From: a virus
Lineage: Duplodnaviria; Caudoviricetes
DNA length: 63,610 nt
Direction: 5' to 3' (one strand)
Virus record (IMG/VR): IMGVR_UViG_3300009155_000004
Span: 1-63,610 of that record
Shown here: piece by piece, positions 41,187 to 41,615 of the stretch
Layout: every line of letters starts with the position of its first letter
Position numbering within the stretch: position 1 is the first letter of the stretch
Position numbers and translations under genes: made by a program
The notes under the pieces: generated by a model
What the model saw: the letters and a program-made list of their open reading frames with translations, nothing else
Databases searched by the model: none
Told to the model about the DNA's origin: nothing

Positions 41187-41325
41187 CACCGGTAATGGGA
41201 AGGAAGCCCACGTTAAACTAAACCATTCTTGGCTGTCGAGCCAGGCGATTCGGTGTACCTAGATGTAAAATTGGTGCTATTGGTCTCTGAAGAACAGGGA
41301 ACACGGTTAACTGCAAGATAAGTTA

Positions 41326-41346
41326 TGACAACGGGGAAAGACCCGT
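41326..41346 (+). repeat. 21-nt hairpin repeat TGACAACGGGGAAAGACCCGT, copy 1
   Basis: Identical to 41591-41611; 4 nt before tRNA-like RNA 2. Confidence 0.9.
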
Positions 41347-41350
41347 ACAT

Positions 41351-41476
41351 CGGAGAGTGGCGGAAGGTTAGGGATGTCCCTGACGTGTTAGACGCTGCTA
41401 GCTAAATATAGCAATTTGGGATTAGCTCTCTAACCATAGAGTGCCCAAAATACAGGTTAGAGTCCTGTCTCTCTGG
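41351..41476 (+). ncRNA. tRNA-like RNA 2 (extra hairpin in D loop, enlarged variable arm)
   Basis: CGGAGAG/CTCTCTG acceptor; GTTAGGG/CCCTGAC insert; TGCTA/TAGCA stem with an 8-nt loop; T loop TTAGAGT. Confidence 0.65.
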
Positions 41477-41590
41477 CCGTACCAGATGCAACAATAAGAA
41501 TGACGGACGTGTTGCATAAGATGGTTGTCCGTACCTATGTGCTACGGGTCGAACTGGGTTAAACAATAACTCGAGGAAGCATAAAAATCG

Positions 41591-41611
41591 TGACAACGGG
41601 GAAAGACCCGT
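41591..41611 (+). repeat. 21-nt hairpin repeat, copy 2
   Basis: Identical to 41326-41346; 4 nt before tRNA-like RNA 3. Confidence 0.9.
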
Positions 41612-41615
41612 GTAT

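Follow-up and report, generated by a model that had tools for sequence, protein, structure and literature searches.

Transfer RNA (tRNA) structures are known to punctuate non-coding transcripts, as in MALAT1/mascRNA, in mitochondrial transcripts and in the phage T4 tRNA cluster with its stable RNAs. In the same way, the C4 RNA of phages P1 and P7 and the CI RNA of phage P4 are matured by RNase P. The virus record IMGVR_UViG_3300009155_000004, a complete genome of 63,610 bp with direct terminal repeats that was analysed over its whole length (the window), contains a stretch of comparable design at positions 41187-41615. It holds the structured RNA X+Y1 (41187-41325) and a second one, Y2 (41477-41590), which has a pseudoknot; each is followed by a copy of the same 21-nt hairpin, which stands just ahead of a tRNA-like element. 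As in the known examples, non-decoding tRNA-shaped elements are found at the borders of other RNAs, at places where RNase P and a 3' nuclease are predicted to cut. Unlike them, this phage operon contains several tRNA-likes with hypervariable centres, and each predicted cut site in the window has a dedicated conserved hairpin 4 nt upstream of it. It is proposed, tentatively and with confidence somewhat short of even, that positions 40996-41741 (+) form one non-coding operon of this ~64-kb freshwater phage, made of RNA cassettes that would be separated by RNase P at the tRNA-likes and capped by the hairpin. The elements are uncatalogued RNA families of a known general kind, namely processed phage non-coding RNAs and terminator-like hairpins. 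They are arranged as follows (L numbers designate loci elsewhere).

41008-41043 (+): abiF-like RNA hairpin at the operon head (Rfam RF03085, 28.5 bits), outside the two structured RNAs under study
41044-41099 (+): leader kept in related phages (blastn, 90-99% identity to L001, L005, L007 and L009)
41100-41186 (+): tRNA-like 1, of class II type with an 8-nt anticodon loop (ARAGORN and Rfam tRNA)
41187-41256 (+): X element (10 distinct metagenome loci)
41255-41325 (+): Y1 structured RNA (seven-sequence alignment A2)
41326-41346 (+): hairpin copy 1, with flank UGACA, stem 41331-41335/41342-41346 and loop GAAAGA at 41336-41341 (direct reading, motif member)
41347-41350 (+): 4-nt linker ACAU ahead of tRNA-like 2, a predicted RNase P leader with U at -1
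41351-41476 (+): tRNA-like 2, with a hairpin insert in the D-loop and an extended arm replacing the anticodon loop (Rfam tRNA, 25.1 bits)
41477-41590 (+): Y2 structured RNA including an A-rich linker (alignment A1, model R1)
41591-41611 (+): hairpin copy 2, with flank (G)UGACA, stem 41596-41600/41607-41611 and loop GAAAGA (stem covarying in L031 and L093)
41612-41615 (+): 4-nt linker GUAU ahead of tRNA-like 3
41616-41713 (+): tRNA-like 3, with acceptor CAGAGAG/CUCUCUG and T-arm, without anticodon loop (acceptor and T-arm script)
41724-41741 (+): operon-closing hairpin AGGGACAU-CA-AUGUCCCU (kept in L005, L006, L007, L028 and L029)

The 21-mer TGACAACGGGGAAAGACCCGT is present at 41326-41346 and 41591-41611, each time exactly 4 nt before a tRNA-like 5' end, as the initial annotation of this DNA had described. 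ACAT separates the first copy from tRNA-like 2 (41351) and GTAT the second from tRNA-like 3 (41616). No other copy was found in the window at up to 3 mismatches, and 100 dinucleotide shuffles yielded none. The exact 21-mer was also observed in the close relative L001, and an unrelated high-G+C phage, L002, shares a 25-nt identity with the 21-mer region. When viral contigs were scanned with the generalised pattern GTGACA-N4-GGAAAGAC-N4, at least 118 loci were recovered. Among the matches listed, all four free stem pairs are formed in 75 of 118 (66 of 108 non-redundant ones), about 2% being expected under uniform base use, and 27 distinct stems occur; covariance-model alignments indicate that some matches with unpaired stems are real hairpins with a bulged base. 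G-U cells outnumber A-C cells (30 versus 12), which places the pairing on this strand, and 52 of 66 hairpins among these matches are co-oriented with nearby long open reading frames (ORFs). As judged from sequence comparison, the hairpin is therefore an RNA-level, pan-phage motif composed of GUGACA, a covarying 5-bp stem closed by G-C and a GAAAGA loop, and both window copies carry this flank, stem and loop on the transcribed strand.

The link to tRNAs was examined in 81 non-redundant hairpins, the window copies and relaxed flanks included, with a strict definition of a tRNA-like (acceptor 7/7 and T-arm 5/5, starting 2-15 nt after the hairpin). An element with acceptor and T-arm follows 16 of the 81 among the matches listed, compared with 46 of 20,000 random positions in the same loci, so that the association elsewhere, which the initial annotation had set as part of the test of its proposal, held. 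The spacers at these 16 junctions measure 3-12 nt, with U at -1 in 12 of them. In parallel, 11 of the 81 hairpins were found to have an ordinary tRNA called by ARAGORN (Met, Gly, Cys, Leu, Asn, Thr, Trp or Gln) at a distance of 5-13 nt downstream, and for one more hairpin the call was 'tRNA-???'. At 11040-11235 of L002, a tRNA-like missed by ARAGORN is directly preceded by a tandem array of three such hairpins, which differ in their stems and have the loops GAAAGA, GAAAGA and GAGAGA.

The hairpin is not covered by any Rfam family, either in the window or at 13 further loci that carry it, where a search at gathering thresholds returned only tRNAs and one HEARO RNA; the latter (RF02033, 127.8 bits) lies at 7954-8167 of L042, 4 kb from a GAAAGA hairpin. 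Full-text literature searches, combining the loop word with tRNA and phage or directed at tRNA-like phage non-coding RNAs, found no description of the hairpin or of the Y RNAs. One phage paper contains the loop word, inside an unrelated P22 small RNA (PMC13397905).

In its shape, the hairpin resembles an intrinsic terminator. Its stem of 5 bp, 4 of them G-C, and its 6-nt loop form the G+C-rich stem-loop of such a signal at the 3' end of a non-coding RNA, and in L001, L031 and L038 the same hairpin is followed by a T-run and scored as terminator-like. The window copies differ in that no U-tract follows either of them (ACAU and GUAU do) and the terminator scan calls neither. Moreover, loop and 5' flank are fixed across unrelated phages, which is not the case in ordinary terminators.

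Loop and flank stay constant in phages that differ greatly in G+C content, whereas the stem is free, which suggests sequence-specific recognition. The boxB element of lambda nut sites combines a short G+C stem, an all-purine loop starting with GA and a conserved upstream flank in phage transcripts, and the window hairpin shares all three. It differs from boxB by a loop of six bases, a spread far beyond lambdoid phages and a strong link to tRNA 5' ends, and no partner protein was found near it in a general shared-neighbour search. The hairpin could accordingly be a recognition tag, boxB/nut-like or a site for a nuclease or chaperone, that marks unit boundaries or controls transcription and in which the cap is incidental, an explanation that is possible but rather unlikely. 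The invariant loop and 5' flank combined with a covarying stem, in low- and high-G+C phages alike, speak for it, as do the three tandem copies with different stems before one tRNA-like in L002 and the location of some copies soon after divergent gene starts, a place suited to a leader element. On the contrary, Y1 works without the GAAAGA hairpin in four relatives, and within ±5 kb of the hairpin no protein family is common to the loci (9 of 77 loci for the largest cluster), in a search that did not specifically seek boxA/N-like elements and would miss small arginine-rich proteins. The partner of such a tag would therefore be a host factor or be encoded elsewhere. The invariant part GGAAAGAC (41335-41342 and 41600-41607) is also the core of a 23S rRNA segment, CGGAAAGACC, near A2058 according to one report (PMC3661153). 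The hairpin could thus mimic this site for an rRNA-directed enzyme or toxin, a weak idea, as an 8-mer is expected to match a ~2.9-kb rRNA by chance in about 4% of cases.

The second spacer holds the best supported fold. The initial annotation had drawn a stem and a pseudoknot in it, and both were borne out: the stem ATGCAACA (41486-41493)/TGTTGCAT (41510-41517) is present, its loop ACGGAC(G) (41503-41509) pairs with (T)GTCCGT (41526-41532), and compensatory changes keep both helices in relatives. Y2 comprises helix A (41486-41492/41511-41517), the pseudoknot helix B (41503-41509/41526-41532), helix C (41539-41543/41578-41582) and hairpin D (41558-41561/41567-41570). In alignment A1, made of three sequences (the window Y2, L031 and L093), a five-helix structure of 28 pairs has 84 of 84 cells paired, and 10 of the 28 pairs are changed on both sides. 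None of 500 shuffles reached the A1 score, and slid controls pair only 26-43% of cells. A covariance model of Y2 without the pseudoknot (R1) detected five more relatives at 24-34 bits (L141, L152, L153, L087 and L078) as well as L080 and L082, representatives of a third type in which the 3' domain is shared. L086 aligned poorly and was removed from the set.

In all eight Y2-type sequences the helix-A loop is able to pair with a stretch just downstream. Shuffling of this loop is a weak control, since the observed helix length was reached in 79-418 of 1000 trials per sequence, and the case for the pseudoknot rests on five different helix B sequences found at one position, each then followed by CC. 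Y2 lies directly behind a tRNA-like in seven of the eight members (the window, L031, L141, L152, L153, L087 and L078), L093 being the exception. To go by these alignments, Y2 is a conserved pseudoknotted RNA family. In L141, L078, L087 and L153, the Y2-type RNA opens with a copy of the 5' acceptor strand of the tRNA-like just upstream, so that this start could pair with the 3' acceptor strand of the same tRNA-like. The window allows a pairing of this kind, UCUGG-CCGUA-CCAGA, at 41472-41486, between the end of tRNA-like 2 and the start of Y2. Such a pairing between Y2 start and acceptor may be an alternative fold that affects processing.

Spacer 1 is of another composition. X contains a 5-bp stem AAUGG/CCAUU (41194-41198/41223-41227) with a conserved 24-nt loop and a second hairpin (41228-41234/41239-41245) in which 2 pairs are changed on both sides. 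A metagenome scan with the X core gave 13 loci, and X is conserved in 10 distinct ones; the matches in L030, L034 and L036 were excluded as chance hits in high-G+C coding DNA. Scanning of genome contigs gave 0 hits. A multi-branch element closed by ACACCGG and TCGGTGT had been proposed at the start of this spacer. Both sequences are present (41186-41192 and 41250-41256), but the helix is unproven: it is invariant where present, missing in L038, L028 and L033, and picked neither by the minimum free energy fold nor by RNAalifold. Y1 ends in the hairpin UAAC-UGCAAGAUAA-GUUA (41308-41311/41322-41325), which has one compensatory pair. The rest of Y1 is invariant in alignment A2, in which X+Y1 from seven loci shows little variation and 3 of 40 predicted pairs are changed on both sides. 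In L027 and L031 the X core was found inside a tRNA-like scaffold of acceptor, D-arm and T-arm, where it replaces the anticodon and variable arms, and the L031 scaffold with its X core scores 31.1 bits with Rfam tRNA, over threshold. By its placement in these two loci, the X core represents the anticodon arm plus variable arm of a class II tRNA-like. In L005, L009, L029 and L037, Y1 is found without the GAAAGA hairpin, and it is then the terminal hairpin of Y1 itself that stands ~4 nt ahead of the following tRNA-like; some hairpin ahead of the cut site therefore looks like the common rule.

Whether the two spacers are repeats of one unit, as initially described, received a mixed answer. They have the hairpin and short words in common, including GTACC(T)AGATG, read here as GTACCTAGATG at 41255-41265 (one base downstream of the 41254 first given) and GTACCAGATG at 41479-41488; otherwise they are different modules. 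When applied to spacer 1, the Y2 model gave 22.5 bits versus 19-20 for the hairpin alone, a gain of ~3 bits. The modular array of structured RNA, hairpin and tRNA mimic is supported, but its units were differently delimited: in relatives, the cassette consists of a tRNA or tRNA-like, a structured 3' RNA and the hairpin, which in some cases closes the operon as its terminator. The hairpin does not simply belong to the following tRNA mimic.

The tRNA-likes retain acceptor stem, D-arm and T-arm without a usable anticodon loop. All three of the window keep acceptor stem and T-arm, and none has a full cloverleaf with a 7-nt anticodon loop. For tRNA-like 1, ARAGORN reports 'tRNA-???' with a 4-base anticodon and Rfam tRNA 37.3 bits against a gathering value of 29; a true tRNA-Gln(UUG) occupies this site in L001. 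tRNA-like 2 scores under the same gathering value and is 97% identical in L007. In its other relatives the D-arm is kept, acceptor stems and T-stems differ and the central regions are unrelated. More generally, acceptor and T-stems of the relatives' tRNA-likes change in a compensatory way around unrelated centres, a pattern that fits the needs of an RNase P substrate. The look-alikes of the window, L005, L028, L033, L037, L058, L080 and L146 have in common a class II-type D-arm and a T-arm, and the acceptor AGUCAGG/CCUGACU is frequent among them. In the centre, where the anticodon would lie, no relationship is seen from one phage to another, as if a scaffold carried exchangeable cargo.

Relatives were gathered through a downstream 74-aa ORF and the X core. 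The following arrangements, listed in order, were observed.

L001: leader, tRNA-Gln, X, Y1, hairpin with T-run
L038: other leader, X, Y1, hairpin with T-run
L005: leader, tRNA-like, X, Y1, tRNA-like, without GAAAGA hairpin
L009: leader, X, Y1, tRNA-like
L033: leader, X core, tRNA-like
L007: leader, tRNA-like 2 only
L031: tRNA-like with X core inside, Y2, hairpin with T-run
L153: related leader, tRNA-like, Y2-type RNA, hairpin, tRNA-like

From the order of elements at these loci, related phages carry the RNA cassettes in different combinations. A GIY-YIG-type homing endonuclease ORF lies beside the locus at 42217-42915 (+) (phrog_7168, E = 5.8e-05), and ORFs of homing-endonuclease type were found inside the locus in L006 (~205-810) and L029 (~1-440). 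In L029, this ORF stands in place of most of tRNA-like 1, of which the 3' end only remains.

These neighbours lend themselves to another explanation, in which homing endonucleases and recombination have left tRNA gene debris, that is decaying class II copies, the fragment X and leftover terminators, with functionless spacers. The GIY-YIG-type ORF, the endonuclease-like ORFs of L006 and L029 and the 3' remnant of tRNA-like 1 in the latter are compatible with it, as are the identity of X with the anticodon-plus-variable-arm part of the L027/L031 tRNA-like and the use of the hairpin as a terminator in relatives. Compensatory changes, however, keep the five Y2 helices, the hairpin stem and the acceptor and T-stems of the tRNA-likes, and they speak against debris because decay would not preserve pairing. 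Furthermore, the Y2 family reaches distant phages with the same layout. Debris is thus a distinctly unlikely account of the locus.

The exchange of cassettes next to the hairpin could also mean that the hairpin works at the DNA level, in single-stranded form as a site of recombination or cassette joining, or else as a promoter, and so explains the shuffling. G-T pairs are tolerated in single-stranded DNA hairpins as well, which also speaks for it. Nevertheless, neither a recombinase nor any other protein family is common to the loci, the hairpin with T-run is a terminator stem in relatives and part of transcribed RNA families, and it is present in contigs from RNA libraries. An action on DNA was judged very improbable.

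Contigs from RNA libraries of two studies join the leader to X/Y1 in the layout of L009. One RNA-library contig begins at 40996 and continues through the leader, and another carries the Y1 core (41268-41302) alone with other flanks. A further one, 41596-41713, contains the GUGACA hairpin and tRNA-like 3 and ends exactly at discriminator base 41713.

The preferred reading of a processed operon assumes that the whole stretch is one transcript in which the tRNA-likes serve as punctuation. RNase P would cut their 5' ends, 4 nt after the hairpin and with U at -1, and a tRNA 3'-end nuclease would cut behind the discriminator bases. Each Y RNA would then be freed with the hairpin and a 4-nt tail at its 3' end, which is the same kind of end that intrinsic termination would leave in relatives with the identical hairpin and a U-tract. 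The hairpin would cap the 3' end of the upstream RNA in a protective role; since Y2 also begins with a pseudoknot, it would be structured at both ends. What the analysis shows directly is the structures with their covariation, the exchange of cassettes among relatives, the association of the hairpin with tRNAs and its terminator form in relatives, whereas RNase P processing, protection by the hairpin and any role of the freed RNAs are inferences.

The initial annotation had envisaged self-cleaving or processing elements in the array, with HDV-like theta ribozymes next to phage tRNAs as the precedent, and the self-cleaving ones found no support. HDV-like ribozymes, named after hepatitis delta virus (HDV), are laid out as a nested double pseudoknot with P1 from nt +1, P2, a 3-bp P3 with L3, P1.1 and P4. 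One report describes theta ribozymes as HDV-like folds in minimal form, having their catalytic C in J4/2 and their cleavage site at the tRNA (PMC10879173). X is a structured RNA directly 3' of discriminator A41186 of tRNA-like 1, and likewise of the tRNA-Gln of L001, which is the position given for theta ribozymes in the same report (PMC10879173). Together with the pseudoknot of Y2, this is what favours a self-cleaving ribozyme in one or both spacers that would process the adjoining tRNA-like. On the other hand, no Rfam 15 ribozyme family, whether the HDV families, hammerhead, twister, twister-sister, pistol or hatchet, was found in 40900-41850 at E <= 10, and no HDV-like nested double pseudoknot can be drawn. 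Complements to the first 6-7 nt of X (41187) occur only at least 57 nt downstream without a hairpin of P3/L3 type before them, nothing complementary follows the start of Y2, X follows the leader without a tRNA in L009 and L033, and the single CUGANGA word (41287) has no hammerhead helices around it. An HDV-like descriptor, hand-made from this layout and run without a positive control, had 0 fits that began at the 3' end of tRNA-like 1 or 2; on the plus strand it gave 5 fits, all at 41136, versus a shuffle mean of 40.7. The trailer of tRNA-like 3, read by eye only, is a plain hairpin. A self-cleaving ribozyme is hence highly improbable. Resemblances to SRP, TPP, c-di-GMP-II, pistol and twister RNAs noted by eye were rejected, none having an Rfam hit at E <= 10.

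Several observations weigh against the processed operon with hairpin caps. Among the matches listed, 65 of the 81 hairpins have no strict tRNA-like behind them, and some hairpins lie at apparent transcript starts or ahead of terminators. A plain 3' cap leaves the fixed GAAAGA loop and GUGACA flank, with their freely varying stem, unexplained. tRNA-like 3 is not called by ARAGORN and has no Rfam tRNA match at E <= 10. Most X+Y1 pairs are predicted ones, sequence variation being slight, and folding energies do not differ significantly from those of shuffled sequences, with z-scores of -1.40 (spacer 1) and -0.83 (spacer 2), no better than chance; the evidence for structure is covariation, not energy. 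Finally, the RNA-library contigs are weak support since they show neither ends nor strand and may hold DNA, and the one in which hairpin, linker and tRNA-like 3 are still joined represents unprocessed RNA or else DNA.

The operon head carries a hairpin (41008-41043) that aligns to all 37 positions of the abiF motif model RF03085 under its gathering cut-off of 37 bits (E = 0.0084 in a 951-nt search, 1.3e-4 genome-wide). It heads the operon in related phages, where it shows two compensatory changes and covaries in L001, L005, L033 and L037. A preprint presents the abiF motif as the repeat of the antitoxin RNA RCd22, which neutralises the AbiF toxin (bioRxiv 10.1101/2025.04.15.648962). The window differs from that system by a score under the cut-off, by one copy instead of two and by the lack of an abiF/Abi_2 gene, no such protein being encoded in the phage, and the hairpin lies apart from the two structured RNAs considered here. 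One possibility is that it mimics an antitoxin RNA, as an orphan copy directed against AbiF defence. Such a mimic would fit a counter-defence role of the whole operon, which is a lead and not a result; the abiF-like head motif and the fast turnover of cassettes are a hint in this direction. A bolder proposal, unlikely as it stands, pictures an RNA-only island for counter-defence or host takeover, with an orphan abiF-antitoxin mimic, class II tRNA-derived scaffolds bearing hypervariable cargo loops and Y RNAs, all exchanged as cassettes and delimited by a universal punctuation hairpin that some host machine present in every bacterium would read. The match to 23S rRNA described above, weak as it is, bears on what this machine might be.

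Little of the non-coding RNA of phages has been charted so far. The locus brings together a widespread uncatalogued hairpin linked with tRNA 5' ends, a pseudoknotted RNA family that is new and rides behind tRNA look-alikes, and tRNA-shaped elements whose centres change freely and which related phages exchange like cassettes. If cutting at the look-alikes does separate the units, phages would use the host tRNA-processing enzymes to obtain sets of small RNAs from one transcript. The hairpin at the operon head in turn gives a testable hypothesis, namely that such RNAs neutralise host defences.

A blastn search of INPHARED phages with the locus gave no match, and Rfam at gathering thresholds over the whole window gave nothing. 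The DNA runs that carry the locus are freshwater metagenomes, and a 2,786-aa ORF of the phage has weak similarity to structural proteins of Flavobacterium, Tenacibaculum and Cellulophaga phages. On these two grounds the host is probably a freshwater member of the Bacteroidota. The locus lies in a gene-free stretch flanked by a ribonucleotide reductase region and small ORFs. The operon-closing hairpin (41724-41741) is not followed by a T-run, and the terminator scan makes no call there. Directly past the operon lies an ORF of ~36 aa (41784-41894, +) that has no family assignment and is kept in L001, L005, L028 and L029.

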